DNA of 64,000 nucleotides from Gammaproteobacteria bacterium Ga0074134 (GCA_001464965.1 LNEJ01000056.1:1186-65185); one strand, 5' to 3'. Shown: positions 12,439 through 58,140, counted from the first letter of the stretch. The notes: generated from the sequence alone by a model not told the origin. Made by a program: numbers and translations.

Positions 12439-12555
12439 CCACGAAAAACACGAAACTCACGAAACAAAACAAAAGCCTCGACCGCTTCAACAACTCACCA
12501 AATGAGTGGCAAGTAATACGCAATATACAACTGAATATTATCGTATTTTTCGTGG
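12439..12555. repeat. Inverted-repeat (MITE-like) intergenic element, degenerate copy
   Basis: ccacgaaaaacacgaaactcacgaaac ... tttttcgtgg are inverted ends. The interior resembles the other copies (cacc.aa..gagtg.caag). Confidence 0.35.
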
Positions 12556-12595
12556 ATACCTAAGTTTTTCAGGATAAATACAGGGTGCGGCAGCA

Positions 12596-14569
12596 TCAAA
12601 TCACCCGCTCATTCCCCCCATCCACCGGCACTTGCGCGGCGGTGGTTTTGGCAAACAGCGGGCCGCACATTTCGGCGGCGAGTTCGGCGACGTCGCGGCT
12701 GGTGACTTCGACGCCCAGCACGTTGTTGCGCTTGTATTCTTTCACGCTCAGGCCGTAGTGTTTGGCACGGGCCTGGAGCACTTCGTCAGTCCAGATGCCG
12801 GTGTCGAACACAGCATTAGGGTGCAGGGAGTTGATGCGGATGCCGTCCTTGCCCCATTCCAGGGCGGCCACCCGCGCAAGCTGATTCAAGGCCGCCTTCG
12901 AGGCGGAATAGGCGGCGGCGCCGGGGCCGGGCGCGGGGACGTTTTTCGAGCCGATAATCACCACCCTCCCCCCTTTGGGCGCATGCTTGAGCAGTGGATG
13001 GGTTTCGCGCATCAGGATCAGGTTGGCGTCGAGGTTGATACCCATCACTTTGCGCCATTCCTCTATAGGCAAGACATCGATCCGGCGTCCCGGCGGGAAG
13101 ATGCCGGCATTGAGAATCAGCATGTCCAGACCGCCGAAGGCACGCACACCGGTTTCCAGGGCACTGGCAATCGCTGCCTCATCGGTCACATCACATACCA
13201 TGCCGAGAAAATCGGGGCGCTTATAGAGCTGCGTGATGGCCGGATTGATATCCAGCCCGATCACCGCCGCGCCGCGCGCCAGCAGGGCGTCCACGCAGGC
13301 CTTGCCAATGCCGGACGCCGCACCGGTAACCAGCGCGATCTCACCGGCGAACTGCGGCGGCTTGCCGCTCTTGCGCAGCTTGGCCTGCTCCAGATCCCAG
13401 TATTCCATATCGAAGATATCCTTGGCGGGCAGCGCTTGCCAGCCGCCCAATGCCGTTGCACGCAGAATGACTTCTATGGTGTGCTGGTAGATGTCTCTGA
13501 CAATCGCGGCGTCCTTGACGGTGCGCCCCACCGTACACAGGCCCAGATCATGATCGAGAATCACTCGCGGCGCAGGATCAAGCATGGTCTTGGGTTCTTT
13601 CGCGGTGGGCGCGTACTCATCAAAATACGCCTTGTAGGCGGCCGCATAGGCATCGATATCCCGCCCCAGGCAGGGCAGACGCTTGGTGCGAATCACGTGA
13701 TCCGGCGTGGCCGGACCCTGCTGCGAGATCACCGCAACATCGTCACGGCACGCGAAGGCCAGGCTGTTCGGATCCGAATCGGTGGCAAGTATCACAGGAA
13801 ACCCCGCCACGGCAGAAATATCGCGGCGCAGATTCGCAATTTCCAGACGTTGCGGTTCGTTGGGAATTCCAACGATAGGCGCCGGCAGGCTCCACGCGCG
13901 GCGCCGCACCAGATACTGCTCGGCGCGTGTCACAAGGCTAATCATGCGTTCATAGGCAATCTTCGCGGTCGGCCCGAAGGAAAATATCCCATGATTCATG
14001 AGTATCATGCCCAAGGTATCTTTATGAGCCTGCTCGGCGTAGGCCTGTGCACACAAGCGCGCAAGGTCGAAACCGGGCATGATATAGGGCACGATCACAA
14101 CCGCATTGCCATAGATCCTTTTGACGCGATTCAGACCCGCCGCCGTGTTGGTCAAGGTGACAATGGCGTCGGCGTGGGTATGATCGACGTACTTATACGG
14201 CAAGGTGGCATGCAGTATGGTTTCGACCGACGACGTGGGCGCGGAAGCGCGTGTCATATGCGTCACCAGCTCGTTGACCATCTGCGGATCCGACAGCGTC
14301 TCGAGCTTGGCCAAAGCCAGCATGTGATTCAAACGAACCGGCGCAAAACCGGCGGCCTCGATGGTCTCCAGATCCCAGCCACTGCCCTTCACATAAAGCA
14401 GGGTTTCATCCTCGCCGAGGATATTTTTTTCAGTGATTTTTACCGAGGTATTGCCGCCACCGTGCAACACCAGCGTGGTATCGCGCCCCAGCAGACGCGA
14501 GGTGTATACACGCAGGTCCAATTCGCCGGGATATTGGCTGGCTTCCTGGTCATTCCAAAGACTTTTCAT
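12596..14569 (-). CDS. Bifunctional class-II aldolase/adducin domain plus short-chain dehydrogenase (rhamnulose-1-phosphate aldolase/SDR type)
   Basis: 657 aa. The N-terminal ~400 aa are aldolase-II like. The C-terminal half has TGAASGIGKA Rossmann and YSASKAAL SDR catalytic motifs. Confidence 0.8.
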   Translation of the reverse strand: MKSLWNDQEASQYPGELDLRVYTSRLLGRDTTLVLHGGGNTSVKITEKNILGEDETLLYVKGSGWDLETIEAAGFAPVRLNHMLALAKLETLSDPQMVNELVTHMTRASAPTSSVETILHATLPYKYVDHTHADAIVTLTNTAAGLNRVKRIYGNAVVIVPYIMPGFDLARLCAQAYAEQAHKDTLGMILMNHGIFSFGPTAKIAYERMISLVTRAEQYLVRRRAWSLPAPIVGIPNEPQRLEIANLRRDISAVAGFPVILATDSDPNSLAFACRDDVAVISQQGPATPDHVIRTKRLPCLGRDIDAYAAAYKAYFDEYAPTAKEPKTMLDPAPRVILDHDLGLCTVGRTVKDAAIVRDIYQHTIEVILRATALGGWQALPAKDIFDMEYWDLEQAKLRKSGKPPQFAGEIALVTGAASGIGKACVDALLARGAAVIGLDINPAITQLYKRPDFLGMVCDVTDEAAIASALETGVRAFGGLDMLILNAGIFPPGRRIDVLPIEEWRKVMGINLDANLILMRETHPLLKHAPKGGRVVIIGSKNVPAPGPGAAAYSASKAALNQLARVAALEWGKDGIRINSLHPNAVFDTGIWTDEVLQARAKHYGLSVKEYKRNNVLGVEVTSRDVAELAAEMCGPLFAKTTAAQVPVDGGNERVI

Positions 14570-14618
14570 GGGTTACCTCTCAGCGTACGGCGAATGATCC
14601 TAAAAATCTCAGATGCAC

Positions 14619-14747
14619 GCCACAGAGTCACGGAGAACACAGAGGTGATACCGGTTCTCGTATTTATTGCTGATCACCGAACGGGTGAGAGCACTATCTT
14701 ACGACAACCAATCGTTTTTTCTCTGTGAACTCTGTGTTCTCTGTGGC
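14619..14747. repeat. Inverted-repeat (MITE-like) intergenic element
   Basis: The left arm ccacagagtcacggagaacacagagg is the reverse complement of the right arm cctctgtgaactctgtgttctctgtgg. The same family as 15379 and 57988. Confidence 0.45.
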
Positions 14748-14858
14748 TAACTGCTTTTTATAAGTTGATTGTAAGGGAAGTTCATGTTTGCCGTCCTGAA
14801 CCTGCAGAGGTGATGGCATGAGAGAGTGTGCCCAAAAGAAAGGGCGACCGCCTGGCTT

Positions 14859-15332
14859 TCAACGCCGAGGCCTGCTGACCTCCGCTATCAACCCTTCGGC
14901 AGCCGCCTCAATCATGTCCAGCACACGCTCGAAACCAGTGAGCCCGCCATAATAGGGGTCGGGCACTTCCTTCTCACCAAGGTGCGGGGCGTATTCCAGG
15001 AACAGCTTGAGTTTGTGCTGATAACCGGAAGGGCAAACCGCTCGCAAGTTATCGAGATTTTCCTCGTCCATCGCCAGGACGTAATCGAAGCTTTCAAAGT
15101 CCGTTACTTCCACCCGGCGCGCGCGTTGCGAGCTGAGATCGACCCCACGCCGCAGTGCCGCCGCCTGGGAACGCCGATCCGGCTCATGGCCAATGTGATA
15201 GGCGTGCGTACCCGCCGAATCAATCTCAACGATGGACTCCAGCCCATGCTGGATCACCAGGCTCCGAAACACGCCCTCAGCCGTCGGCGAACGGCAGATA
15301 TTGCCCATGCAAACGAATAAAACACGTACCAT
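14859..15332 (-). CDS. Low-molecular-weight protein-tyrosine phosphatase
   Basis: CMGNICRS (CX5R P-loop) at the N-terminus and a DPYY motif. Confidence 0.85.
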   Translation of the reverse strand: MVRVLFVCMGNICRSPTAEGVFRSLVIQHGLESIVEIDSAGTHAYHIGHEPDRRSQAAALRRGVDLSSQRARRVEVTDFESFDYVLAMDEENLDNLRAVCPSGYQHKLKLFLEYAPHLGEKEVPDPYYGGLTGFERVLDMIEAAAEGLIAEVSRPRR

Positions 15333-15378
15333 TTTCTACTCCGGAATACGGTGGTTTAACTTTAAAAAACTATATGAA

Positions 15379-15522
15379 CCGCAGAGCGCGCGGAGAGCGC
15401 AAAGAAATTCATATGGTTAGCGTAAGGCGCACTTTCACCCAGCGGGTGACTCGACACAACTTGCCAAGGTCTTTTTTCTCTGCGTTCTCCGTGCGCTCTG
15501 CGGGTGAATCGCCGTTTTTAAG
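15379..15522. repeat. Inverted-repeat (MITE-like) intergenic element, best-preserved copy
   Basis: CCGCAGAGCGCGCGGAGAGCGCAAAGAAA ... TTTTTTCTCTGCGTTCTCCGTGCGCTCTGCGGG are inverted arms around a ~65 bp core (ggttagcgtaa..cacccagcgggtgactcg..). It is ~75% identical to the copy at 57988-58140 and shares the tail tgaatcgccgttttt. Confidence 0.5.
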
Positions 15523-15564
15523 CCTTACCTTGCTTTTCAATCTTACTACTTTTAGCATAGAGAC

Positions 15565-15846
15565 ATGACATACGCTGAATTCACTCCCTCTTGCTCTCTG
15601 ACGCAATTGCGCGGCCTGATCGGCCTGCATGTCAACTATAACGGCGCGCGCTGCCAGATTATTGAAGTGTTGGAGGATGAGCCCGCCCTGATTCTTCAGG
15701 ATTGCGAGAGGCACACCACGATCCAGCCGGATCAACTCGGCGAGGCCCACCGCCGCGTCCCCTCCACCTTCACCATTCCTGTCCTGAGCAGCGATAAAAC
15801 TGAACTCAGCCCAGCGTTTTTGGATCTGCATTTGCTTGATGCCTAA
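15565..15846 (+). CDS. Hypothetical 93-aa protein, no family recognised
   Basis: Clean ORF of normal GC with no overlapping ORF of comparable quality. It is flanked by an inverted-repeat element and a palindromic REP. The ribosome-binding site is weak. Confidence 0.3.
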   Translation: MTYAEFTPSCSLTQLRGLIGLHVNYNGARCQIIEVLEDEPALILQDCERHTTIQPDQLGEAHRRVPSTFTIPVLSSDKTELSPAFLDLHLLDA

Positions 15847-15885
15847 CGCTTTTTCCATTTCTAAAGCAATCCATAGAGTGAAATC

Positions 15886-15936
15886 GTAGGGTGCGTCCCA
15901 CGCACCAATGGTTGTGGTGCGTAAGACGCACCCTAC
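15886..15936. repeat. Palindromic REP-like hairpin element (copy 1 of 2)
   Basis: gtagggtgcgtcccacgcaccaatggttgtggtgcgtaagacgcaccctac is a near-perfect ~22 bp stem. It is almost identical to 48516-48568, and both are preceded by agtgaaat. Confidence 0.5.
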
Positions 15937-15943
15937 ATAATTA

Positions 15944-16699
15944 TTAACCTCCAAGCACCCGCCGCACCCGTAGCAAGTCCTCCTCCGTATCAACGCCAAT
16001 CCCCGGTGGCTCCAACGCCTCGGCGACATGAATCTTGCAGCCCTGCCACAAGGCCCTTAGCTGCTCCAGGGATTCGGTCTGCTCCAGCACGCACGGCGGC
16101 CATTGCACGTAATCCTGGAGGAAGGCAGCGCGATAGGCGTACAGGCCGATGTGCCGGTAGTGTTCGGAGCGGGCAGGCAGTTCACCGGTGGTTGCGGTGA
16201 AGGCGTCTCGATCCCAGGGGATCGCGGCGCGGCTGAAATACAGGGCATAACCCTGTTTATCCATCACAACCTTCACAAGATGCGGATCGAACAGTTCGCC
16301 AGCAGTCTTGAGGCGCTCGCACAAGGTGGCAATGCTGGCCTGCGAGTGCGATTGCAGGTTTTCGGCAACCTGGCGGATCAGCGCGGGCGGCATGAGGGGT
16401 TCATCGCCTTGCAGGTTGACGATGACTTGATCGCCCGCATAGCCCATCAGCCGCACCACTTCGGCGAGACGGTCGGTACCGGAAGGGTGATGCGTTGCGG
16501 TCATACACACATGCGCACCAAAACCTTCGGCCACGCTGCGGATGCGCTCGTCATCGGTGGCCACCACGACCTCGGCGGCGCCGCTTTCCAGCGCGCGCTC
16601 ATAGACGTGCTGAATCATGGGCTTGCCGCCAATCTCAAGGAGCGGCTTGCCGGGCAGCCGGGTGGACGCGTGACGCGCGGGAATGATGACGCGGAACAC
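15944..16699 (-). CDS. kdsB: 3-deoxy-manno-octulosonate cytidylyltransferase (CMP-KDO synthetase)
   Basis: [20 protein letters not shown].. N-terminus and QGDEP motif. Conserved neighbour of ycaR and lpxK. Confidence 0.9.
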
Positions 16700-16701
16700 T
16701 G

Positions 16702-16881
16702 TCAGACTTCCTCGTCCGCTCCCAGTTTACGCGCCTCCTCTTCCAGCATGACAGGAATTTCGTCGCGGATTGGATAGGCCAGGCGATCTGCCTTGCAAAT
16801 CAGTTCCGCTTCCGCCTTTTTATAAACAAGCGGGCTCTTGCAGATGGGGCACACAAGAATATCGAGTAACTTTTTATCCAT
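16702..16881 (-). CDS. ycaR: Trm112-like small protein YcaR (UPF0434/DUF343), 59 aa; below the ORF-track length cut-off
   Basis: Hand translation gives [59 protein letters not shown], with the CPxC...zinc-ribbon signature. It sits in the conserved lpxK-ycaR-kdsB position. Confidence 0.7.
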
Positions 16882-17866
16882 TTTTCACCTTCCTCAACGC
16901 CAGCAAGTTAAGCAATTGCTTGCCAAAATCCTCATCCAGTTCCGCATCCACCGGCAAATACCAGTGCTGTGCACCGGCAAACCCGCGGCATTTTACCGCG
17001 TCTTTTTCGGTCATGATAACAGGCGCATTGTCGCCGAATTGAATGTCCTGCGCCACAAACGGATGGTGATCCGGGAAAGCATGTTCGATGATGGTCATTC
17101 CGAGGCTTTTGAGGTGATCGAAAAACCGCGCCGGATGACCAATGCCTGCAACCGCGTGGATAACCTGCCCCTGAAACTCCGCGGACTGTCGCATCATGGA
17201 TTCATCGCATAAATTACGGATCAAGCCGCTACGCAGCCGCATGGAGAATTGGCCTTGCCCTGCTTGCCCATTGTTCACCACGACCAGATCCACGCTGTTT
17301 AACCGGCCTTGCGGCTCGCGCAACGGCCCTGCGGGCAGGCAATACCCATTGCCGAAGCGGCGCGCGCCATCGATCACTGCGATTTCTATATCACGGCCCA
17401 GCGCATAATGTTGCAAACCGTCGTCGGAGATGATGATGTCACACGCCGCGCTTTCCAGCACCTTTCTGGCGGCGGCAACGCGATTCGGCGCAACTGCCAT
17501 TGGGCATCCACTGCGCCGCGCCAGCAGCACCGCCTCATCTCCCACCAGGGCGGGGTCGCTGCCCGCATTCACCTGTTGCGGCCACCGGGGGGCATTGCCA
17601 CCATAGCCGCGGCTAACAATGGCGGGCGCATATCCAGCCTGCTTGAGATACTCAACCAGCCACGCCACCAACGGGGTTTTGCCAGTGCCGCCGACGCTGA
17701 TATTTCCAACCACGATTACCGGCACGGGCAGCCGCGTGATCTTGCGCAATCCGGTACGATACGCGATGCGGCGCAGCACGGCCACCAGACAGAACAGCCA
17801 GGACAGGGGCACTAGCAAGACCGATAGGGGATTATTGCTGTACCAATAATGATCCAGGCGCCGCAT
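16874..17866 (-). CDS. lpxK: Tetraacyldisaccharide 4'-kinase
   Basis: P-loop [13 protein letters not shown] and the msbA-lpxK arrangement. Confidence 0.9.
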
Positions 17867-17871
17867 GCGCG

Positions 17872-19656
17872 TTAACTGATCTCCGCATCTGTACTTGCTG
17901 TTTGCGGCGATGCAAACTGCATGCGATGCAGGCTGGCATAATGCCCGCCACGCGCCAGCAGCTCGGCGTGCCTGCCCTGCTCCACGATCCGGCCATGATC
18001 CATCACCACGATCACATCCGCCTGCTCAATAGTGGACAGCCGATGGGCGATAATCAGCGTGGTGCGGTTGCGCACAAGCTGGGCAAGCGCGGCCTGGATC
18101 AAGCGCTCTGATTCAGTATCCAGCGAGGCAGTAGCCTCGTCGAGAATCAGCACGGGCGCGTCCTTCAGCAGAGCGCGGGCAATCGCCAGGCGCTGGCGCT
18201 GGCCGCCGGACAGCATCATACCCTTCTCACCGACGATGGTCTGCAAACCCTGCGGCAGTTTACGGATAAACTCCATCGCATGCGCCGCCTCGGCGGCACG
18301 CATGATATCCGCCTCGTTCACGCTGCCCTGGCGGCCATAGGCAATGTTATTGGCGATAGTGTCATTGAACAGTGTCACATCCTGACCTACCAGCGCGATT
18401 TGATTACGCAGGTCTTCAAGCATGAAGTCGCGGATGTCACAGCCGTCAAGCGTGATGCTGCCCATGGCCGGATCATAAAAACGCGGCAGCAAGCTGACCA
18501 GTGTTGTTTTACCGCTACCTGAGCGCCCGACAAAGGCGACCGTTTGGCCGGGCTCGATCTTCAGATTGATATTTTCCAGCACCCTGCCCTTCGTTGCGGC
18601 ATAGGCAAACGAGACATTGTCATATTCGATGGCGCCACGCGCGCGTTCGATGCGAACAGTACCGGTATCCTTTTCCGCCTCACAATCCAGCAGGCCAAAA
18701 ATACTTTCCGAGGCAACGATGCCGCGCTGTATCGCAGAATGAATTGTGGTCAGCCGCTTGAGCGGTGTGAGCAGCATGGTCATGGCGACGATGAACGACA
18801 TAAACGTGCCCACCGTGATCTTTGCCAGCATGGAATCCATGGTCGCCAGATAGATGATGCCAGCCAGCGCAGACCCTGCAACCAGTTGAATCACGGGAAC
18901 GCTCGCTTCCCGCGTCGCCGTCATCTTCATGTGCTGGCGCCGGTTGACTGCGTTCACGTCGTCAAAAATATCCGCCTGGTGGCGCTGGCCGCCGAAAATC
19001 TTGATGACACGCTGCCCTTCAATAGCCTGGCCCGCCGCCTCGGTAACCCCGCCCATGCTTGCCTGGATGCGGCCACTGATGCGCCGGAAACGCCTGTTCA
19101 CATAGGCCACCAGAAATGCGATGAAGGGTCCGGTCAACATAAAGGTGATGGCCAGCATCCAGTTCAAGTAAAACATCCAGGCCAAAAGGCCAGCGATAGT
19201 CAGGGTATCCCGGACAACAACAGTCAACACACTGGTGGATGCCTCCGCGACCTGCTCCACGTCATAGACCAGCTTTGAAATAAGCTGCCCCGATGAGCTT
19301 TTGTCATAGAAACCAGCGGGCAGACGCAGCATATGCTCAAACATCTCCCGGCGCAGATTGTTAATCACCTGCCGCCCCACCCAGGTCATGCCATAGGAGG
19401 ACAAAAATCCGCTGACACCGCGCAGCATGAACAATCCGATGATCGCCAGCGGTATGATGCGGATGGTATCCGGGTCTTTGTTTACAAAGCTGCCGTCCAG
19501 CATGGGCTTCATCAGCGCGGCGAATGCGGTGTCGGTGGCCGCCAGAATCACCATAGCAACGATGGAGGCAGCGAAGATTTTCCAGTAAGGGCGCGCATAG
19601 CCGAGCAGGCGGCGATAAACCACGGATGTGCTCTGGGAGGATGAATCAGTCATCAC
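17872..19656 (-). CDS. msbA: Lipid A export ABC transporter (permease plus ATPase)
   Basis: 594 aa with six TM helices, then a nucleotide-binding domain (GRSGSGKTT, LSGGQRQRLAIARALL). Located upstream of lpxK. Confidence 0.9.
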   Translation of the reverse strand: MMTDSSSQSTSVVYRRLLGYARPYWKIFAASIVAMVILAATDTAFAALMKPMLDGSFVNKDPDTIRIIPLAIIGLFMLRGVSGFLSSYGMTWVGRQVINNLRREMFEHMLRLPAGFYDKSSSGQLISKLVYDVEQVAEASTSVLTVVVRDTLTIAGLLAWMFYLNWMLAITFMLTGPFIAFLVAYVNRRFRRISGRIQASMGGVTEAAGQAIEGQRVIKIFGGQRHQADIFDDVNAVNRRQHMKMTATREASVPVIQLVAGSALAGIIYLATMDSMLAKITVGTFMSFIVAMTMLLTPLKRLTTIHSAIQRGIVASESIFGLLDCEAEKDTGTVRIERARGAIEYDNVSFAYAATKGRVLENINLKIEPGQTVAFVGRSGSGKTTLVSLLPRFYDPAMGSITLDGCDIRDFMLEDLRNQIALVGQDVTLFNDTIANNIAYGRQGSVNEADIMRAAEAAHAMEFIRKLPQGLQTIVGEKGMMLSGGQRQRLAIARALLKDAPVLILDEATASLDTESERLIQAALAQLVRNRTTLIIAHRLSTIEQADVIVVMDHGRIVEQGRHAELLARGGHYASLHRMQFASPQTASTDAEIS

Positions 19657-22405: not shown

Positions 22406-22549
22406 TGGCTGGCAAGGGCACCCTATAAATTCAATCAAGGCACGAGGGCACACCCCGCATTCAAATCCCGCCGCTTTGTGCTATGACCAGCATTTAAACA
22501 TCCGGCCCGCGACCTCGTCAATTAGATGATGCCGTGGCACAACAAACCC

Positions 22550-23884
<1,335 letters not shown>

Positions 23885-30230: not shown

Positions 30231-30866
30231 TCAATCCTCGATCATTCGATAACGCATTGCAAGATGCGCCAATTCGACGTCGCCCTGCACCCCCAGCTTT
30301 TCGAACAAGCGATAACGGTAGGTGTTGACAGTTTTGGGGCTAAGGCAAAGCTTGTCCGAGATATCCGGCACTTTGATGCCCTTCGCCACCATCAACATCA
30401 CTTGCATCTCGCGTGACGACAGCTTGTCAAAAGGCGATTCCGCCGCGCCCGGCAACAAGCTCAGCGCCAGACTCTGAGCGATGCCAGGGGCGATGTAACG
30501 GCCTCCTTTGTATACCGTCTCAATGGCGCGCACGATTTCGTCGATGCCACAGTCTTTGGTCAGATAACCGGCGGCGCCGGCCTGCATAAACTGGTTAGGA
30601 AAAGGTTCATTGCCATGGACTGTGACGGCAATGATCTTAATGGCGGGGGCTATCTGCAGCAGCTTGCGCGTCGCCTCAAGCCCGCCGATCCCAGGCATAT
30701 TCACATCCATGAGCACGACATCAGGCTTGCGTTGCCTGACAAGGAGAATTGCCTCCTCGCCGCTACTGGCCTCGGCCATCACGTCAATACCAGGAATATC
30801 CGCAAGCATGCGCTTTATACCGCTGCGCATCAGCGCATGGTCATCAACCAAGATTACCTGAATCAT
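30231..30866 (-). CDS. gacA: Response regulator of the GacA/UvrY (NarL/FixJ) type. The start is MIQVILVDDH at 30866; the listed N-extension would overlap the tRNA.
   Basis: Receiver domain (DD..D..K) plus LuxR helix-turn-helix LSPKTVNTYRYRLFEKL. Near-collinear with GacA/UvrY sequences. Confidence 0.75.
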   Translation of the reverse strand: MIQVILVDDHALMRSGIKRMLADIPGIDVMAEASSGEEAILLVRQRKPDVVLMDVNMPGIGGLEATRKLLQIAPAIKIIAVTVHGNEPFPNQFMQAGAAGYLTKDCGIDEIVRAIETVYKGGRYIAPGIAQSLALSLLPGAAESPFDKLSSREMQVMLMVAKGIKVPDISDKLCLSPKTVNTYRYRLFEKLGVQGDVELAHLAMRYRMIED

Positions 30867-30880
30867 GCTCGACCCCGAGT

Positions 30881-30974
<94 letters not shown>

Positions 30975-44567: not shown

Positions 44568-44589
44568 TCACTCCCATTTTCGAATGCAC

Positions 44590-47240: not shown

Positions 47241-47284
47241 TCGCCACGCCCATGACTGACCCTTGCTTCACTGAAAAAGAATTG

Positions 47285-48490: not shown

Positions 48491-48515
48491 TTCCATTTCG
48501 CGATACGAAGTGAAA

Positions 48516-48568
48516 TGTAGGGTGCGTTCCACGCACCAATGGTAATGGTGCGTGGAACGCACCCTACA
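48516..48568. repeat. Palindromic REP-like hairpin element (copy 2 of 2)
   Basis: tgtagggtgcgttccacgcaccaatggtaatggtgcgtggaacgcaccctaca is a perfect 22-bp stem. It sits between moeA and mobA. Confidence 0.5.
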
Positions 48569-48614
48569 AATATAAACATCCCCTCAGCGGGGAAGGGCTA
48601 ATGTGAGAAGGAAA

Positions 48615-49211: not shown

Positions 49212-49307
49212 CGATAGATGGTTACCCTGCGATAAAAAAATGGATGGAGAATATCAAAAGCTTGCCAGGATATGTTGGCATGGTGGGTATTGACTAGCAG
49301 AATCACA

Positions 49308-49856: not shown

Positions 49857-49867
49857 TTCAAGCTCCC

Positions 49868-52279
49868 TTATGTTTGCACTCTTTTCGACTCAGCGGCAGC
49901 GATAACCAGCGCGGTTTTAATCGCTGTATCGGGGTTGAGTGAGATCGAATCGATTCCCGCTTCGACAAGCCAGGCGGCAAACTCCGGGTAATCGGAAGGC
50001 GCCTGCCCGCAAATCCCGATTGGCTTTCCGACGCGCTTGGCAGCGTCAATTGCCATAGCGATCATCTTGCGCACTGCATCATTGCGTTCGTCAAAAAGAT
50101 GGGCGATTGTTCCCGAATCGCGGTCAATTCCGAGCACCAGTTGCGTCAAATCATTCGAACCGATGGAATAGCCGTCGAAGATGCGCAGAAACTCATCTGC
50201 CAACATGACATTCGCCGGTAGTTCACACATGCCATAGACCTCCAAGCCCTGCTCGCCTTGCCGCAGGCCGTTGGCCGCCATAACATCAATTACACGCGCC
50301 GCTTCCTGAACCGTGCGGCAGAATGGGATCATCACCTTGACATTGGTCAGCCCCATATCGCGCCGCACGCGTAGCAGCGCGGCACATTCGAGGGCAAAGC
50401 CATCGGCGTAGCGCGGATCGTAATAACGCGATGCGCCACGAAAGCCGAGCATCGGATTCTCCTCATCCGGCTCAAACTCGCGCCCGCCCATAAGCTGCGC
50501 GTACTCATTGGTTTTGAAATCACTGGTGCGGACGATAACGGGCTTGGGATAAAAGGCAGCGGCGATGCGCCCCACGCCCTCGCTGAAACGCCGTATAAAA
50601 AATTCGCGCGGGCTTTCATCTCCGATGCGCGCAGCGATCTTCCGAATCGTCTGAGAATCGCCAAGCTGCGGATAGCGCGCCAACGCCATCGGATGGATAC
50701 CGATATGATTGGTGATGATAAACTCGGTGCGGGCAAGACCGACACCTGAATTAGGAATAGCGCTCAACCCCAGGGCTTGGCTGGGGTCACCAACCGTGAG
50801 CATCACCGAGGTGCGCGTCTTGGCGGCAGCCGTCGCCTCGACCCGTTTCACTTCGAACGGAATGCGACCAGCATAGACGTGGCCTTCAGCCCCTTCAGCA
50901 CATGAAACCGTAACGTCACTATCGTCCAGCAGGGTACGGGTCGCATTTCCAGTGCCCACGATGCAGGGCAGGCCGAATTCGCGCGAGACTATCGCAGCGT
51001 GGGCTGTACGCCCGCCCTGATCTGTAACAATCGCCGCAACCTTACGCATCACCGGCTCCCAATCCGGATCAGTACTTTCCGCAACGAGAATCTCTCCCTG
51101 CTGGACACTGGAAAGCCCCGAAATATCCTGCACTACGCGCACGCGGCCTACGGCCACTTTTTCACCAACAGCTTGGCCTGTCACTAACGGCGCGCCAGGT
51201 TTGCCAATCAGGTGGTAATACTCGGCTGTAGCCGCGCGCGACTTGCTTGAGTGAACCGTCTCCGGACGTGCCTGCACGACAAAAAGTTCACCTGTCACAC
51301 CATCCTTGGCCCACTCAATATCCATGGGTTGCGGCTGCCCCTTGAGGCTTGAATAATGTTCTTCGATCACACAGGCCCAGCGCGCCAGGGTTAACACATC
51401 GTCATCGGTGAGAGAAAAACGGCGGCGTTCTTCGGCGGGCACCGTCTCGCCACGAGTAGCGCGGCCGCTGTCGGCATACACCAACCGCCTTTCTTTCGAG
51501 CCGAGACGCCGCCCGATGATAGGGCGCAATCCCTGTGCCAGGGTCGGCTTGAATACCACCCATTCATCGGGCGTTACTGTGCCTTGCACCACAAACTCGC
51601 CTAACCCATAGGCACTGGTCACAACCACAACATCACGAAAACCCGTTTCAGTATCAATTGTGAAAATCACGCCGGAACTTGCCTTATCGGAACGCACCAT
51701 CGGCATGACACCGACAGAAAGCGCCACTTTGAGCTGGTCGTATCCCATCCGCGCACGATAGCTGATTGCGCGATCCGTAAACAGGGAAGCAAAGCATGAA
51801 TGCACCGCATACAGCAATCCCTCGCGCCCGCGCACATTGAGAAAGGTTTCTGCCGCGCCGGCGAACGAGGCCTCGGGCAAATCCTCCGCCGTTGCCGATG
51901 AGCGCACCGCCAGTTCCGGCTTCCGTCCCAGGCGCTGACTAAGCTGCTCGTAAGCCGCGATAACCGTACTGCACAGCGCTTCGGGCAATGGCGTCTCCAT
52001 CACAGCCGCACGCGCCTGGCTACCGCGCACCGCCAGCTCGTTTACATCTTCGGGGTCAAAGCTGGAGAAAATCTCACGCAGCCTATTTTTTAGATTTCTT
52101 TCTGAAAGCAATAACCAGTAGGCGCTGGCCGTTGTCGCAAACCCATCCAGAACGCCCACGCCCTGTGGCTTGAGTTCGTTGAACATCTGCCCAAGTGATG
52201 CGTTTTTGCCGCCGACACGCGCGACATCGTTCATATTGATTTGAGAAAAATCGAGCGTGTAAGGCGGTACAGCGTTCAT
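49868..52279 (-). CDS. ppsA: Phosphoenolpyruvate synthase
   Basis: Collinear with E. coli PpsA from MNDVARVGGKNASLG through the phosphohistidine and PEP-utilising domains. The start is taken at the second ATG after GGAGGAG. Confidence 0.9.
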   Translation of the reverse strand: MNAVPPYTLDFSQINMNDVARVGGKNASLGQMFNELKPQGVGVLDGFATTASAYWLLLSERNLKNRLREIFSSFDPEDVNELAVRGSQARAAVMETPLPEALCSTVIAAYEQLSQRLGRKPELAVRSSATAEDLPEASFAGAAETFLNVRGREGLLYAVHSCFASLFTDRAISYRARMGYDQLKVALSVGVMPMVRSDKASSGVIFTIDTETGFRDVVVVTSAYGLGEFVVQGTVTPDEWVVFKPTLAQGLRPIIGRRLGSKERRLVYADSGRATRGETVPAEERRRFSLTDDDVLTLARWACVIEEHYSSLKGQPQPMDIEWAKDGVTGELFVVQARPETVHSSKSRAATAEYYHLIGKPGAPLVTGQAVGEKVAVGRVRVVQDISGLSSVQQGEILVAESTDPDWEPVMRKVAAIVTDQGGRTAHAAIVSREFGLPCIVGTGNATRTLLDDSDVTVSCAEGAEGHVYAGRIPFEVKRVEATAAAKTRTSVMLTVGDPSQALGLSAIPNSGVGLARTEFIITNHIGIHPMALARYPQLGDSQTIRKIAARIGDESPREFFIRRFSEGVGRIAAAFYPKPVIVRTSDFKTNEYAQLMGGREFEPDEENPMLGFRGASRYYDPRYADGFALECAALLRVRRDMGLTNVKVMIPFCRTVQEAARVIDVMAANGLRQGEQGLEVYGMCELPANVMLADEFLRIFDGYSIGSNDLTQLVLGIDRDSGTIAHLFDERNDAVRKMIAMAIDAAKRVGKPIGICGQAPSDYPEFAAWLVEAGIDSISLNPDTAIKTALVIAAAESKRVQT

Positions 52280-52362
52280 AGCCATCTCCTCCGGAATTCT
52301 CTCAAGAAACTCAAGAGCACATTTTAAGGATATCACCCGCGTTGATTAACTGGGGGGCAGGC

Positions 52363-52644
52363 TTATAGCACCCCATGCTCCAGAGCTTGCAAGTAAATAA
52401 AGTCTGGGGCTTTTACGCCCGCCTTCTTTCTGATTTCCACCAGCTCCGGCGATTCAAAAAATCTTCTGGCTCTTTCCAGCGAGGACCATTGCGAAAAGTG
52501 GACGATATTATTTGCGTCATTATCGTATCTCAACAGCTGATAGCTGATCTCTCCCGCCTCTTTTCTCATGGCTGCGGCCTGATCGAAAAGGTGCTTCCAT
52601 GCTTGATAATTTTCGACCTCATGAATAATTAGGACGTATTGCAC
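52363..52644 (-). CDS. Small ABM/Dabb-like (ferredoxin-fold) protein, tentative
   Basis: 93 aa with the pattern ..H...W.S.E....F..SPE.. reminiscent of antibiotic-biosynthesis-monooxygenase-like barrels. No stronger assignment is possible. Confidence 0.35.
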   Translation of the reverse strand: MQYVLIIHEVENYQAWKHLFDQAAAMRKEAGEISYQLLRYDNDANNIVHFSQWSSLERARRFFESPELVEIRKKAGVKAPDFIYLQALEHGVL

Positions 52645-52677
52645 ATAATCTCCTGTTCTTGATCAAACTGGCGCGGC

Positions 52678-52813
52678 CAAATGTAGAGAGGGTTAGCGTT
52701 TTTTTGCGTAACCCACCAAACGTTGCGTAGCAACACAACACATTTTTTAATGAGTGCCTTGCGGCACATCCGGTGGGTCACGGCACAAACTGCGTGCCTA
52801 ACCCACCCTACAT
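52678..52813. repeat. Inverted-repeat intergenic element related to both the MITE-like family and the REP hairpin
   Basis: The ends aaatgtagagagggttagcg ... cctaacccaccctacattt are inverted. The core shares ggttagcgt...aacccacc with the 15379 and 57988 copies. Confidence 0.35.
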
Positions 52814-53917
52814 TTTTTTCAAATCAGTATCATTCGGAACAGCATTCGCTATACGAGTTGTCGAGAGAATGTCTCGAAACGTATTGACTAAGGATTGGCA
52901 TTGCGCATCCGTCCCCACGGATATCCGCAGGAACTGGTCAATCCGCGGCTTGGCGAAATGTCGCACGAGTATATTGCGCTCACGGAGCCGCTTCTGCAAT
53001 GCAGATGCATCGTGTGACGCATGCCTGGCAAAGAGAAAATTGGCTTGCGACGGCAAGACATGGAAGCCCAGGGAGCGAAGCTCGTGGGCGAGCCACTCGC
53101 GACTCGCTATCACCTGATTGCGAGTGTATTCAAAATGCTCTTGGTCACATAGTGCGGCCACCGCCCCTTTAAGCGCGAGACGATCCAATGGATAGGAGTT
53201 GAAGCAGCTTTTCACCAGAGTCAACGCATCAATCAACGAGGGGTGTCCAACCGCGAAGCCTACGCGCAGTCCGGCGAGCGAGCGTGATTTGGATAGCGTC
53301 TGGACGACGAGCAGGTTCGGAAAATCGGCCACCAGCGGGATTACCGACTCGCCACCGAAATCGACATAAGCCTCGTCGACAACAACGACAGAGCCATCGG
53401 TTCCTTCCAGCAAACGCTTCAGTTCACCACGCCCAACAGCGGAGCCGGTCGGCGCATTCGGGTTCGGCAAGACCACGCCGCCGTTGGGCCGCAGATAGTC
53501 TTCGATGTGAACTTGCAGGTCGGCATCAAGCGGCACGGCTGAATATTCAATGCCGTAAAGACCACAATACACAGGGTAAAAGCTGTAGCTGATGTCGGGA
53601 AAAAGTACCGGCCGCCTGTGCTTCAGTAATGCGTGAAACGTATGCGCCAAGATTTCATCAGAACCGTTTCCGACGAAGACATGCCCAGGAGAAAGCCCAT
53701 GCATGTCTGCGACCACCTGTTTCAGTTCCCGGCCTTCAGGGTCCGGATAGAGCCGCAAGTCTTCATTAGCTGCCTGCCGGATTGCCGCAAGGGCCATAGG
53801 TGACGGCGGATATGGATTCTCGTTCGTATTCAGCTTGATTAGATGGGGGATGGCGGGCTGTTCCCCCGGAGTATAAGGTTCAAGTCCCCGAATACATTCG
53901 CTCCAAAGATCGTTCAT
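52808..53917 (-). CDS. hisC: Histidinol-phosphate aminotransferase
   Basis: N-terminus ..LEPYTPGEQ...[14 protein letters not shown].. and class-II aminotransferase core. Confidence 0.85.
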
Positions 53918-53975
53918 AAAGCATGTAACGCGGTATTATGTGACGTCCAACGCTCACTATCACCAGCAGGTACAC

Positions 53976-54473
53976 TCATTCCTCACCATCCCAATAATCA
54001 ATAGCAGACGACTTGCGGCTAAAAATTGAAAACGCCCTCCTTTCGGCTGAGCCGCCCGGCGCACTACCCACAAACACACCAAATTTTCCAGAATCGGGAT
54101 ATTCAAACACATCCGGTTCCTCCATGGTGCTCACAGCCAGATATCTCGTCTCTTCACTGGACGTATTCGTCAATTGATGCGGCGTTTCCGGGCCAGGAGG
54201 CACACAAATAATGTCACCGGCCCGCACTGTGTATTCCTTGCCGCCATACCTCAAAGTGGCCATGCCTTCGAGAATAAAAAACATCTCTTCATTGACGTAG
54301 TGGAAGTGGTACGGCCAGCCGGTTTTTCCAGGAGGCAGCACGACAAGACGATAGCCCAGCTTTTTGGCACCTAGTCGCGTGGCAACCGCGCCCAGTTTCG
54401 CCTCAAAGCGCTCACCATTGCCCCACTCAGTGAGTTCCACGTCTTGAAGATTCAGAATAGGTGACTTATCCAT
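53976..54473 (-). CDS. Cupin-domain protein
   Basis: Two-His cupin motif region ..GWPYHFHYVNEEMFFILEG...RAGDIICVPPG... Confidence 0.6.
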   Translation of the reverse strand: MDKSPILNLQDVELTEWGNGERFEAKLGAVATRLGAKKLGYRLVVLPPGKTGWPYHFHYVNEEMFFILEGMATLRYGGKEYTVRAGDIICVPPGPETPHQLTNTSSEETRYLAVSTMEEPDVFEYPDSGKFGVFVGSAPGGSAERRAFSIFSRKSSAIDYWDGEE

Positions 54474-54584
54474 GCCATTCGCCTTCTGCTAGCCTAATGC
54501 GGCACAGGAATGTGTCGCCCTAAAAAACCACAGAGAAAAGATTTATCATTCAAATTCCATCTCAATGGGAGAATCAGCTTATTC

Positions 54585-54625
54585 CCTCTCCCCAACCCTC
54601 TCCCGCCCTGCGGGAGAGGGGGTAA
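54585..54625. repeat. GC-rich palindromic element (ccctctcccgccctgcgggagaggg) downstream of leuC
   Basis: Perfect inverted repeat CTCTCCCGC/GCGGGAGAG. It gives rise to a spurious antisense ORF containing PLPPCGRGG. Probably a terminator or REP. Confidence 0.3.
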
Positions 54626-54658
54626 ATGCATCCTTGAGGTGGAAGTTCAACCAGGGGT

Positions 54659-56065
54659 CTATGCAAGCTCTCGAACATCCACAAAATGCCCCGTCACCGC
54701 CGCTGCGGCGGCCATTGCCGGGCTGACGAGATGGGTGCGTCCGCCTGGGCCTTGGCGGCCTTCGAAGTTGCGATTCGAGGTAGAGGCGCAGCGCTCGCCC
54801 GGCTCCAGGCGGTCGGCGTTCATGGCCAGACACATGGAACAGCCTGGCTCGCGCCATTCAAAACCGGCCTCGATAAAAATCCTGTCCAGCCCTTCTGCTT
54901 CGGCCTGACGCTTAACCAGGCCAGAGCCCGGCACCACCATGGCGAGTTTTACATTGCTGGCGACATGCTGGCCGCGCGCAATCGCGGCGGCGGCGCGCAG
55001 GTCTTCAATGCGCGAATTGGTGCAGGAGCCGATGAACACCTTGTCGATGGTGATATCGGTGATCGGCATGCCCGGCGTCAGGTTCATATAACGCAGCGCG
55101 CGCGTTATCCCTTCGCGCTTTACTGCGTCAGGCTCTTGGGCGGGATCAGGCACACGGCCATCCACCGGCACCACCATTTCCGGCGAGGTGCCCCACGTCA
55201 CCTGGGGCTTGATCGACGCGGCGTCGATATGCAACACCCTGTCGAACACTGCATCGGTATCGCTGTGCAGATCTCGCCATGCCGCTACCGCCTGGCCCCA
55301 CAGTGTACCGCTGGGGGAATAGGGCCGTCCCTTCACATATTCGATAGTCTTGTCGTCCACCGCCACCATGCCCGCACGCGCGCCTGCCTCGATGGCCATG
55401 TTGCAAACGGTCATGCGGCCTTCCATGGAGAGGGCACGGATCGCCTCACCGCCGAACTCGATGGCATAGCCTGTGCCGCCCGCAGTGCCGATTTCGCCGA
55501 TGATCGCCAGCACGACATCCTTGGCCGTGACACCCGCGCCCACCTGGCCATCCACACTGATGAGCATGTTTTTTGATTTTTTCTGGATCAGACACTGGGT
55601 GGCGAGCACATGCTCGACTTCGGAGGTACCGATACCGTGCGCCAGCGCGCCAAAGGCGCCGTGGGTGGAGGTGTGCGAATCGCCACATACCACGGTCATC
55701 CCAGGCAGCGTCGCGCCCTGCTCCGGGCCGATGACATGCACTATGCCTTGACGCGGATCATTCATCCTGAATTCGGTAATGCTGAACTGCGCGCAATTTT
55801 TGTCCAGCGTCTCAATCTGCACGCGGGAAACAGGATCGGCAATGCCATGGCTACGATCGGTGGTGGGAACATTGTGATCGGCCACCGCCAGGTTGGCGTC
55901 CACGCGCCACAACCCGCGTCCGGCCAGGCGCAGACCATCGAAGGCCTGCGGCGAGGTCACTTCATGTACCAGATGACGGTCGATATACAACAGACATGTG
56001 CCATCTTCATTGCAGCGCACTACATGCGCGTCCCACAATTTATCGTACAAGGTTTTTCCGGCCAC
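54659..56065 (-). CDS. leuC: 3-isopropylmalate dehydratase large subunit
   Basis: [16 protein letters not shown].. N-terminus and aconitase-family Cys ligands. Confidence 0.95.
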
Positions 56066-56206
56066 TTTCCTGACTCCTGCTTCTCTCTCACTGAAAGGTG
56101 GATTTTACGCCAGCGGGCAGGATTACACAAAAAACCCCCACGCTGATTAGCACAGAAATCCCCTCAACGAGTAGAATAGACACATTCATCACATTCAGGT
56201 TCAGAT

Positions 56207-57058
56207 ATGAAGGCGCAGATCATAGATGGCAAGGCAATCGCTGCCGATATCAGGCAGACTGTAAAGCGCGGCGTAGAACAGCGTCTGACGCACCACAAGC
56301 GCGTACCTGGCCTAGCCGTTATCCTGGTTGGCAACAATCCTGCCTCCGAGGTCTATGTGGCCAGCAAGCGCAAGGCCTGCATTGAGGCCGGCATTATCTC
56401 CAGGAGCTATGACCTGCCCGACAGCATCAGCCAGAAGGCCCTGCTCGCGCTGATTGACGAGTTGAATGACGCCCCCGATATCGATGGCATTCTGGTACAG
56501 CTTCCGTTACCCGCACATATCGACTCCGAAACCGTCATCGAGAGAATTCACCCCGACAAGGATGTGGACGGTTTCCACCCCTATAATGTCGGACGACTGG
56601 CCTTGCGCCTGCCCGCGTTGCGGCCCTGCACTCCGCACGGCGTCATGACCCTGCTGGAGAGCACCGGGCAAGCCCTCAAAGGACAAGAGGCAGTGATAGT
56701 AGGCGCTTCCAACATCGTTGGACGGCCGATGTCCCTGGAGCTGCTGCTCGCGGGCTGCACCGTCACCACCTGCCACCGCTTCACCCGCGACCTGCCCAGC
56801 CATGTGGCACGCGCCGACATCTTGGTGGTGGCCGTAGGCAAACCGGGGTTCATCAAGGGTGAATGGATCAAACCCGGCGCCACCGTGATTGACGTGGGCA
56901 TCAACCGGCTGGCGGATGGCAAGATCGTAGGTGATGTGGAATTCGCTCCCGCCGCCGAACGCGCCGCCTGGATCACCCCCGTCCCCGGCGGCGTGGGGCC
57001 GATGACGGTGGCGACGTTGTTGCAGAATACGCTGGGGGCGACAGAACGGAGGGGATAA
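56207..57058 (+). CDS. folD: Bifunctional methylenetetrahydrofolate dehydrogenase/cyclohydrolase
   Basis: [12 protein letters not shown].. and [10 protein letters not shown]-type Rossmann motif. Full-length FolD. Confidence 0.95.
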
Positions 57059-57135
57059 CACCCCACAGACAGTCAGGCAGCCTTCAAGCGAGCCACATGA
57101 AGCTCGCCGCGATGTTGCTCAACCTGCCACAGACC

Positions 57136-57360
57136 TTACTGCACCTGCTGATTCAGCCAACTTTCCGCCGTGGTATCAAAAGCGATGGAGAGGCACACAG
57201 CCATCTCGGGACTAATACCGGCGTGCCCGTTGAGAATGGCAGACAAAGTTTTGCGGCTTACACCTAGCGCTTTTGCCGCATGGGTAACGGTGAGATTCAA
57301 AGGCTCAAGGCACAGCGTCTTGAGTATCTCACCCGGAGACGGAGGATTATGCATCAGCAT
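57136..57360 (-). CDS. higA: HigA-type (XRE helix-turn-helix) antitoxin-like protein, no cognate toxin gene visible
   Basis: 74 aa. ..[53 protein letters not shown] matches the HigA/VapI family. Confidence 0.6.
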
Positions 57361-57434
57361 CGTCTTTTACCTCAATAATAGTCTTCGTAATCGACGGCCT
57401 CGGAATCCTTTCCGATGAAGATGGCACGGCGTAT

Positions 57435-57902
57435 CTACAGCCACCCCCCCAGCAAAACCAATTCATACTGTATAAGCAGCGCGTAGCCAAACAGCAGCCC
57501 ATGTAACGTATGGCGCACCGTGAAGAGGCTGAATACGGCAAAGTTTTTATGCGCGACAAGGAACACCAGCCCCGCTGCGGTAAAGGCGAACTTTGTAACA
57601 AGGAAGAGTTGGGTATCTATTTCGAGCAGCCACGCCATGAACGGGTTGGCCTCGGATGCGCCAAGCTGCAGCAAGTGCAGGGTGAACGTTGCGTCAGCAC
57701 AGCACAGAAGCAGGATTCCCACGGCGATATAAAACAACCCTGGCTCATACCAGTCAACATAGGAATTCACCCGGTCTCCGGCGCGACGCGCCCCTCGGCG
57801 CCTGCCCTGCCAGGCCGCGCGGCTGAAGGGTGCTGTAGCTGCGGAGCGGCGGTCTGCGTGATAGCGCTGTCCCGAGACCACAGGAATAACCATAGAGGTC
57901 AT
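57435..57902 (-). CDS. DUF5658-like small membrane protein
   Basis: Three to four TM helices and the motif LQLGASEANPF. Confidence 0.4.
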   Translation of the reverse strand: MTSMVIPVVSGQRYHADRRSAATAPFSRAAWQGRRRGARRAGDRVNSYVDWYEPGLFYIAVGILLLCCADATFTLHLLQLGASEANPFMAWLLEIDTQLFLVTKFAFTAAGLVFLVAHKNFAVFSLFTVRHTLHGLLFGYALLIQYELVLLGGWL

Positions 57903-57987
57903 ATTTTTATATCCTCAAAAGGGAACCGCCTACTTTTAACGCACTCTTGTATGCTACCTTGTCTTGCTAGCGGCTATCAACCTGAAA

Positions 57988-58140
57988 AAGCTATTGAACT
58001 GCGGGGGACGCGAAAGAAACAAAGAAATTCAGGGGGTTAGCGTAACAAGCACACCCAGCGTGTGACTCGGCACACCTTGTCAAGATCATGTTTTTCCTCT
58101 GTATTCTCTGTGCGATCTGCGATGAATCGCCGTTTTTTTA
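57988..58140. repeat. Inverted-repeat (MITE-like) intergenic element, second well-preserved copy
   Basis: ~75% identical to 15379-15522 over the whole length, including ggttagcgtaa, gtgactcg and tgaatcgccgttttttt. Confidence 0.5.

Follow-up and report, generated by a model that had tools for sequence, protein, structure and literature searches.

We analyzed a 64,000-nucleotide stretch of DNA from Gammaproteobacteria bacterium Ga0074134, called the window in what follows, which is part of a 172-kb metagenome contig from granular activated carbon of a drinking-water plant (JGI 3300002461 AADWTP_10000817). The nearest named relatives of its genome belong to Sulfuricaulis (Gammaproteobacteria). 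An earlier note on this DNA had pointed to five copies of a short inverted-repeat element lying between genes and resembling miniature inverted-repeat transposable elements (MITEs). Four of these loci are the subject of this report and are listed here with revised coordinates; copy 4 belongs to a separate repeat family and is treated further below.

Copy 1, 12421-12573: distant member with CACGAAA-type arms; termini CTTAAAACC...GTTTTTCAGG; arms 12436-12464 (TATCCACGAAAAACACGAAACTCACGAAA) and 12541-12558, 94% complementary.
Copy 2, 14599-14764: termini CCTAAAAATC...GCTTTTTATAAG; arms 14619-14644 and 14715-14746, made of CACAGAG/CACGGAG units.
Copy 3, 15360-15522: the best preserved; termini CTTTAAAAAAC...GTTTTTAAG; arms 15379-15407 and 15475-15503, 29 nt, 90% complementary; core carrying GGTTAGCGTAA and CACCCAGCGGGTGACTCG.
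Copy 5, 57981-58142: decaying; 3' arm 58091-58122 intact, 5' arm 57999-58027 mutated; core 81% identical to that of copy 3.

The four elements are 153 to 166 bp long. The sequences lie where they had been placed, and the size of ~130 to 150 bp given by the earlier note reflects bounds that were too short, the termini being 7 to 10 nt outside the arms. Both sets of motifs that it named are present, namely CCGCAGAGCGCG..GAGAGCGC and ..CTCTGCG..CTCTGCGG in the arms and GGTTAGCGTAA...CACCCAGCG.GTGACTCG in the core.

Copy 1 separates convergent genes, a FemAB-like gene (+) and an aldolase/SDR gene (-). Copy 2 is located between the tandem genes ptp, which codes for LMW-PTP (14859-15332, minus strand; PF01451), and aldolase/SDR, 29 nt short of the start codon of the latter. 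Copy 3 lies between ptp and a divergent, conserved 93-aa open reading frame (ORF), its end 27 nt before the ptp start codon. Copy 5 directly adjoins the stop codon of nlpD and separates this gene from a DUF5658 gene in tandem with it, in agreement with the junction after nlpD reported earlier. The claim that most insertions lie between convergent or divergent genes is borne out for copies 1 and 3, respectively, and not for the tandem copies 2 and 5; an earlier statement of the gene context was partly wrong because ptp had been put on the wrong strand. The only ORF that overlaps an element is a public gene call of 149 aa (15409-15858, minus strand) that extends into copy 3, and the elements otherwise have no coding capacity. 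The 93-aa ORF on the plus strand (15565-15846) is the one kept next to kdsB in the relatives L197 to L202, which makes the 149-aa call a probable artifact of the stop-free arm.

All of the copies are built alike. Outermost is an 11-bp inverted repeat, CYTNAAAAARC / GYTTTTTNARG, shared by copies 1, 2, 3, and 5 and by the related elements of L200, L203, and L121. Inside it come an unpaired spacer of 7 to 10 nt and a subterminal arm of 26 to 32 nt, composed of three tandem units of ~9 nt, each of them a heptamer C(A/G)C(A/G)(G/A)A(G/A) with a purine-rich dinucleotide. The units read CCRCAGAG-nn-CACRGAG-nn-CRCAGAG in copies 2, 3, and 5 and CCACGAAAAA-CACGAAACT-CACGAAAC in copy 1. An A-run and a variable core of ~65 nt follow inward of the arm, succeeded by the mirror image of the outer parts. 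The cores of copies 2, 3, and 5 and of L203 are homologous, and they contain a hairpin, TCACCC-GCT-GGGTGA, that is conserved in four members (TCACC-CGTTC-GGTGA in copy 2).

Pairwise global alignments with shuffle controls (z) yielded 81% identity between copies 3 and 5 (z = 41), 78% between copies 2 and 3 (z = 13), and 76% between copies 2 and 5 (z = 9). Copies 3 and 5 are thus homologous from end to end as the earlier note had stated, at 81% identity rather than ~75%. A family nhmmer profile detected copy 2 (E = 1e-37) and copy 5 (E = 2e-44) and did not match copy 1, which bears only a weak likeness to copies 2, 3, and 5, best in reverse orientation (z of 3.0 to 5.3); it has the same architecture, but its heptamer (CACGAAA) and its loop differ. 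The family of five proposed earlier hence reduces to three clear members, copies 2, 3, and 5, and a distant one, copy 1, with copy 4 left out. Exact matches to the 3' arm pattern TTTYCTCTGYNNNCTCYGTGNNNTCTGYG number three in the window, where shuffled sequences would give 0.00; a tolerance of up to three mismatches adds a fourth, the other arm of copy 3. Repeat finding grouped the 3' arms of the 14.7-, 15.4-, and 58.1-kb copies into one family (D12) and the left halves of the 15.4- and 58.0-kb copies into D13, and it returned the arms of copy 3 as I2. Two other readings of the copy 1 sequence were abandoned. That of TTATCCACG as a DnaA box was dropped, as the equivalent position in the other copies breaks the invariant T4, and a likeness of its arm to the Mu R-end or Tn3 inverted repeats was judged to be probably fortuitous, given termini that are neither TG/CA nor GGGG.

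The evidence supports the view that four of the five flagged loci behave as non-autonomous inverted-repeat insertions. One sign is an empty site. Copy 3 is absent at the orthologous position in three sister metagenome-assembled genomes (MAGs), L197, L198, and L199, whose PTP is 94% identical. Their sequence reads ...AAGCAAGGTAAGG-TAAGGT-TTAAACCACCGTATTCCGG.... The filled site, given on the gene strand, has 164 nt of element in between, as ...AAGCAAGGTAAGG-(element)-TTAAACCACCG..., and outside it the sequences are otherwise ~90% identical. Short AT-rich direct repeats, as expected of target-site duplications, abut several of the elements. Copy 1 is framed by a perfect 6-bp repeat, ATAAAT (12415-12420 and 12574-12579), that adjoins the terminal repeats, and copy 5 by a perfect 5-bp repeat, ATCAA (57976-57980 and 58143-58147), of which the right one contains the nlpD stop codon. 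By our own estimate, two perfect repeats of 5 to 6 bp among four elements at fixed positions would arise by chance with a probability of ~3e-5. The flanks of copy 2, ATGAT and TTGAT, agree at four of five positions, and copy 3 has no clean duplication. The search for duplications that the earlier note had suggested was therefore positive at copies 1 and 5, nearly so at copy 2, and negative at copy 3. With terminal inverted repeats, AT-rich target duplications at some copies, an empty site, and no transposase in the window, its description of the elements as non-autonomous holds.

This last point rests on a Pfam scan of the window's ORFs, taken as a greedy set without overlaps and with a minimum length of 100 aa (57 in all). 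They proved to be housekeeping genes or without a match, and none was a transposase, an integrase, a RAYT gene, or a GxxExxY gene (see below), so that the earlier statement on the lack of a transposase stands for this sample. A purpose-built hidden Markov model (HMM) did not detect any GxxExxY-like ORF in the window either.

Related elements were present at other positions or in other orientations in related genomes. L203, a more distant relative (PTP 75% identical), carries a homologous element with the same core between kdsB and ptp, without a clean target duplication. L200, L201, and L202 have a 100-nt version from which the core is deleted, located just after ptp in the opposite orientation and flanked in L200 by GTGAA on both sides. 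The related element of L121 has a doublet of repetitive extragenic palindromes (REPs) nested in its loop, and its flanks match at four of five positions. In ~50 kb sampled from the genomes of relatives, only the L203 element and the short one of L200 to L202 were found, compared with four in the 64-kb window. Orthologues of the aldolase/SDR gene were of no use for empty-site analysis because synteny is not conserved, and the copy 5 site was not alignable with the relative L206. A scan of metagenomes with the core did not recover the source contig, its one match being a chance one in a ribosomal-protein gene, and it is thus uninformative on copy number.

We then scanned one genome per species in GTDB (596 Gb) with the 3' arm pattern, which amounts to 42 bits. 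It was found in at least 120 stretches from more than 15 phyla, against ~0.3 expected by chance according to our own estimate. Among the matches listed are Acidobacteriota, Planctomycetota, Chloroflexota, Verrucomicrobiota, Chlamydiota, Lentisphaerota, Bacteroidota, Nitrospirota, Gemmatimonadota, Omnitrophota, Cloacimonadota, and beta-, gamma-, delta-, and zeta-proteobacteria, as well as one Methanoperedens MAG and the cultured strains Alcanivorax jadensis T9, Lacipirellula limnantheis I41, and Labilibaculum euxinus A4. A further 61 stretches with the arm pattern were found in IMG/VR viral contigs. The family is therefore neither a lineage-specific MITE nor specific to one genome, and its 9-nt repeat arms are found in many phyla.

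An inverse arm lies upstream of almost all of these matches. In 151 arm pairs, the loop was shorter than 50 nt in 82, between 50 and 100 nt in 36, and longer in the rest; its content is highly variable, whereas the arms are conserved. Each arm has two to six units. The heptamer of this wider set is mostly CACAGAG, in a sample that was selected by that very pattern, and neighboring hairpins in the same loci use CGCAGAG, CACGGAG, CACGAAG, CGCAGAT, or CACAAAA. The two arms of a hairpin share the heptamer in 235 of 306 units, and the spacer dinucleotide is the same in both arms in only 46 of 188 (24%, compared with 13% expected). The 5' arms are purine rich and Shine-Dalgarno-like, with a spacer preference for GA, AA, and AG. 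Since the heptamers are shared and the spacers rarely match, the arms look like two inverted arrays of a recognized heptamer, rather than helices selected for perfect pairing. Hairpins show a preference for intergenic DNA, falling inside long stop-free stretches in 33% of cases, compared with 78% of random segments, and the flanking genes are tandem in 34 cases, convergent in 11, and divergent in 16. In L010, L031, and L125, one heptamer type is nested in the loop of another (e.g., CACAGAG within CACGGAT, CGCAGAT, or CGCGGAG), which suggests that the loops are favored insertion sites.

The class can be described by inverted arms of two to five tandem 9-nt units with a C(A/G)C(A/G)(A/G)A(N)-type heptamer, the purine-rich strand being 5' on each side. 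Copies 2, 3, and 5 match the search pattern itself, and copy 1 fits with its CACGAAA units, a heptamer that also flanks GxxExxY genes in L211 and L213. One arrangement is unexplained by a hairpin model: in the Lentisphaerota MAG L040, at ~5440-5560, three 3'-type arms of the CATGAAG, CACGAAA, and CACAGAG types stand head to tail, each ending in TGGTGAAG or TGGTTAAG and with no evident 5' partner. Translated arms recur as pseudo-peptides at ORF ends in L008 to L127 (TEDTEDTE, HRGHREHRG, QRTQRSQRK, LCVLCVLCG, and SVSSVSSVV). The ORFs beside arms are mostly spurious translations of this kind, and a Pfam enrichment test on other families was abandoned.

Longer relatives with the same kind of arms carry a gene. 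Loops of 300 to 500 nt hold an ORF of ~125 aa (in L102, and twice in L041), whose product is a GxxExxY protein (TIGR04256, E = 6.5e-45; PF13366 PDDEXK_3, E = 2.3e-43) with a putative role as a transposase. Such a gene lies between arms in L102, L041 (twice), L196, L194, and L195, and it has whole hairpins on both sides in L025 and L193. In the L102 copy (1240-1617), from a Desulfobacterales MAG, an in-frame TAA replaces the Gln of the homologues. This enclosed copy is therefore probably a pseudogene, consistent with a decay of gene-carrying elements toward gene-less hairpins.

To look at the association from the protein side, we used samples that are unbiased with respect to the arms, namely a tblastn search of PLSDB and a profile scan of IMG/VR. 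The former returned eight plasmid or chromid matches, and the four closest (Gemmatirosa, Bernardetia, Sphingomonas, and Bacteroides finegoldii) were all bracketed by nonamer arms, with whole hairpins in Gemmatirosa. The gene bears the PGAP label 'GxxExxY protein' in Bernardetia, Sphingomonas, and Bacteroides finegoldii (the Gemmatirosa record is unannotated), and in these three it is inserted co-directionally between the housekeeping genes ade and manC, fabD and fabG, and radA and an FAD protein gene, respectively. The Sphingomonas annotation reads through its own 3' arm. The more distant match in Treponema has a single-unit inverted repeat, ACACGGATTCG. The profile scan found six GxxExxY loci in IMG/VR, and inverted arrays of 9-nt period flanked all six, with the heptamers CACAAAG/CACGAAG, CGCAGAT, CACGAAA, CGCGAAA, CACGGAT, and CGGAATA. 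Inverted nonamer arrays thus flank the gene in most of the loci sampled from the protein side, and the physical association of this class of hairpins with GxxExxY genes is strong and repeated.

In an alignment of GxxExxY proteins, the G..E..Y motif and a D...E.K triad are invariant, a pattern consistent with an active PD-(D/E)XK nuclease. PADLOC reported a marginal similarity to Cas4, a sequence search of the PDB returned no solved structure, and PHROGs gave nothing. PF13366 is listed as a family whose function is unknown, with 'multiple transfers, mixed clades', the transfers being between phyla (PMC3424549). In ~190 loci, no recognized transposase was found between distant arm pairs, where the search met only housekeeping genes, and GxxExxY is the only gene recurrently bracketed by arms. 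In two viral contigs of IMG/VR, the arms enclose a Mu GemA-like ORF (PF06252) or a DUF5662 ORF (L167, 1804-2217; L184, 7427-7754), and a loop can therefore carry cargo other than GxxExxY.

Comparison with known systems places these elements partly on familiar ground. With bacterial MITEs such as the Neisseria Correia elements, ERIC/IRU, RUP, and the Tn3-derived TIMEs, they have in common a length of 150 to 170 bp, a noncoding and intergenic nature, terminal inverted repeats, short AT-rich target duplications (here at some copies), dispersed copies, insertion polymorphism between close relatives, and the capacity to form a long hairpin in transcripts. Their MITE-like behavior is thus of an already known kind. 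Unlike those MITEs, they have arms that are arrays of 9-nt repeats, a heptamer conserved across many phyla, and a pan-bacterial spread; the sole gene found between matching arms codes for a 125-aa protein of the PD-(D/E)XK family, and we know of no cognate insertion sequence transposase. Integron attC sites are similar in being imperfect inverted repeats of 60 to 140 nt that vary in sequence and keep their architecture, and in adjoining small promoterless genes, as in the hairpin-gene-hairpin arrangements of L025 and L193. In contrast to them, the elements have nonamer-array arms and occur one by one at scattered places in housekeeping operons, not as arrays; inspection of five loci revealed no R''/L''/L'/R' boxes or GTTRRRY core, and the window contains no integrase. 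A further parallel is offered by those intervening sequences of 23S rRNA that are bounded by hairpins and contain small ORFs: long inverted repeats loop out a small selfish ORF within a host transcript, and the spread is sporadic and horizontal. The elements of the window, in contrast, have no ORF and occupy intergenic positions in mRNA operons instead of rRNA. Searches of the literature on the heptamer, the arms, and GxxExxY found no description and returned only a Bacteroides fragilis primer for PCR (polymerase chain reaction) that overlaps an arm and the unknown-function catalogue entry for PF13366. The nonamer-array arms, their conservation across phyla, and the association with GxxExxY appear to be undescribed in Rfam and in the searchable literature, a scope outside which most subscription journals fall.

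The locus first counted as copy 4 belongs with other palindromes of the window. They form a separate repeat family, a doublet of GTAG-headed palindromes (TGTAGGGTGCGTTCCACGCACCA / TGGTGCGTGGAACGCACCCTACA), with the following members.

REP doublet, 15886-15938: GTAGGGTGCGTCCCACGCACCA/TGGTGCGTAAGACGCACCCTAC.
Second copy of the doublet, 48516-48568.
Copy 4 of the earlier note, 52678-52815: REP/REPIN-like inverted pair of GTAG-headed palindromes AAATGTAGAGAGGGTTAG...CTAACCCACCCTACATTT.

Copy 4, originally placed at 52678-52813, lies between an ABM monooxygenase gene and an aminotransferase gene, and its palindromes ATGTAGAGAGGGTTAG...CTAACCCACCCTACAT resemble the two doublets. It was rejected as a member of our family, with z of at most 2 against every other copy and no nhmmer match. 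The 15886-15938 doublet is absent from the junction of kdsB and the 93-aa ORF in the sister MAG L197, and similar REPs are found in L206, in addition to the one nested in the L121 hairpin. REP/REPIN elements and their RAYT genes share with copies 1, 2, 3, and 5 the general pattern of abundant extragenic palindromes in inverted pairs with one small domesticated or selfish enzyme gene. In contrast, the latter have much longer composite arms, target duplications, and no GTAG/GGAG head, a feature present in copy 4 and at 15886 and 48516, and the associated enzyme is of the PD-(D/E)XK family here and a HUH Y1 transposase there. That our elements are REP/REPIN sequences moved by RAYT (TnpA-REP) is thus extremely unlikely: true GTAG-headed doublets do exist at 15886, 48516, and 52678, but the elements show no similarity to them, have 29-nt arms of 9-nt repeats and 65-nt loops, and are accompanied by no RAYT gene in the window.

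Copies 1, 2, 3, and 5 probably belong, as MITE-like members without a gene, to a class of small insertional elements that is very widely distributed; they are taken as gene-less since no GxxExxY gene was found in the window. The elements insert into AT-rich intergenic DNA, can leave duplications of 5 to 6 bp, and vary in their presence at orthologous sites. The heptamer arrays would serve a mobilizing protein as multiple subterminal binding sites. That protein would most likely be a GxxExxY protein that acts in trans and is encoded elsewhere in the genome, and the window copies would derive from the gene-carrying form by internal deletion or as miniatures of it. When transcribed in operons, the arms may pair into a long bulged hairpin, with 7-bp helices split by 2x2 mismatches. 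Such a hairpin might undergo processing, or it might hide the 5' arm, which is purine rich and Shine-Dalgarno-like. A broader proposal, which we put forward only tentatively, is that nonamer hairpins and GxxExxY genes together represent previously undescribed, pan-prokaryotic minimal selfish elements, in which a mobility enzyme of ~125 aa of the PD-(D/E)XK family would act on 9-nt arrays, possibly in extruded hairpin or cruciform DNA, and whose gene-less derivatives would spread as MITEs into operons of more than 15 phyla and into phage genomes.

Several observations weigh against these proposals. The flanks of copy 3 read TAAGG and TAAAG and the empty site reads TAAGGTAAGG, which could be an excision footprint or a pentamer repeat that existed beforehand. 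Flanking direct repeats are only modestly enriched in the wider set, with 11 seven-mers compared with 3.0 +/- 1.6. The more distant GxxExxY genes H5 and H6, in Prevotella and in a Fusobacteria plasmid, are flanked by direct rather than inverted repeats (in Prevotella, ACAAATC three times at a period of 9 to 10 nt), and the pattern at H8 is unclear. The HMM and Pfam searches found no GxxExxY gene in the window, and a trans-acting partner in the source organism is putative. GxxExxY, whose activity is putative, could be cargo and not the mobility enzyme. Finally, the conserved core hairpin hints at some structural constraint beyond simple transposase binding.

This last feature is also part of the case for a different explanation, according to which the hairpins are functional RNA elements in cis, such as operon processing sites for an RNase specific for double strands, mRNA stabilizers, or translational masks, kept by selection at these loci and not mobile as DNA. 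Copies 2 and 3 fold much better than shuffled sequences (z of -7.6 and -6.5), copy 1 moderately better (z = -3.5); elements end 27 to 30 nt upstream of the next start codon, and their 5' arms are purine rich and Shine-Dalgarno-like. The inner TCACCC...GGGTGA hairpin is kept in four members, and that of copy 5 shows a possible compensatory change by eye, at a position that MAFFT/RNAalifold scores as a broken pair. This explanation is nevertheless unlikely, given that copy 3 is missing in the closest relatives, that copy 5 has lost its long stem, which folds no better than shuffles (z = +0.6) because its 5' arm is mutated, that the spacer positions show no covariation, that orientation relative to the adjoining genes varies, and that target duplications are present. 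Rfam gave no relevant match in the window at gathering thresholds and none in the region 12300-16000 at E <= 10. An effect at the RNA level could still arise as a secondary consequence of insertion. As for the terminator function suggested by the earlier note, it finds no backing here. A simple terminator scan made no call at any element, and the T-runs lie 7 to 10 nt beyond the ~30-bp stem rather than directly after a short G+C-rich one. Together with the lack of calls, the spread of hairpins over tandem, convergent, and divergent contexts (the latter 16 of 61 classified in the wider set) argues against such a role, which we rejected.

Alternatively, the hairpins might be pre-existing landing sites into whose loops the GxxExxY gene or other inserts home, the gene-less copies being empty sites. 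The loops do hold GxxExxY (L102, L041, and L196), a REP doublet (L121), or other hairpins (L010, L031, and L125), and they vary much more than the arms. We regard this as quite unlikely, for the polymorphism at the copy 3 site concerns the whole hairpin with its termini, and it is whole hairpins that target duplications flank; furthermore, copies 2, 3, and 5 and L203 share a core, and the entire unit has therefore multiplied. We likewise give little credence to the idea that a conventional DDE transposon, with a master copy elsewhere in the genome, mobilizes them as ordinary MITEs in the manner of Tn3, Tn7, or Mu/IS21, with GxxExxY as cargo. AT-rich target duplications of 5 to 6 bp and repeated subterminal sites would fit well, as Tn7, Mu, and Tn402 typically have multiple end-binding sites and generate 5-bp duplications. 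The termini, however, are not TG...CA or GGGG, neither the window nor the intervals between distant arm pairs of the ~190 loci yielded a transposase, and the only gene recurrently bracketed by arms is GxxExxY. Insertional elements of the nonamer-array class thus remain our preferred explanation for copies 1, 2, 3, and 5.

Other features of the window are apart from this family. Its single Rfam match at gathering thresholds is an 88-nt tRNA (30887-30974, minus strand), long enough for a class II tRNA, which overlaps the upstream end of a greedy ORF call for a response-regulator/LuxR gene (30231-30911, minus strand). Two large adjoining ORFs of 558 and 615 aa (1363-4841, minus strand) contain many diverged internal repeats of ~150 to 160 nt (families D1 to D7), which suggests a repeat-rich, propeller-like surface protein; the 615-aa ORF has a Big_5 Ig-like domain and the 558-aa ORF has no Pfam match. 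Next to them, a 660-bp gap between divergent genes (4841-5504) holds two other, unrelated inverted-repeat structures of ~165 bp each.

Inverted-repeat structure, arms 4934-4961 and 5073-5100: 28 nt, 86% complementary.
Inverted-repeat structure, arms 5321-5342 and 5459-5480: 22 nt, 86% complementary.

Recognition of the nonamer-array elements would clean the annotation of many MAGs, where they give rise to spurious peptides and false ORFs, and arm translations are a likely source of junk entries and of false N- or C-terminal extensions in protein databases. For the organism itself, the insertions lie at most 30 nt from the starts of ptp and aldolase/SDR and at the stop codon of nlpD, and envelope-related genes may therefore be expressed differently than in sister strains without these insertions. 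If the link with GxxExxY holds, it would provide a function and a testable substrate for a large and widespread protein family (TIGR04256/PF13366), and it would add a new enzyme class to the few proteins that move bacterial DNA.

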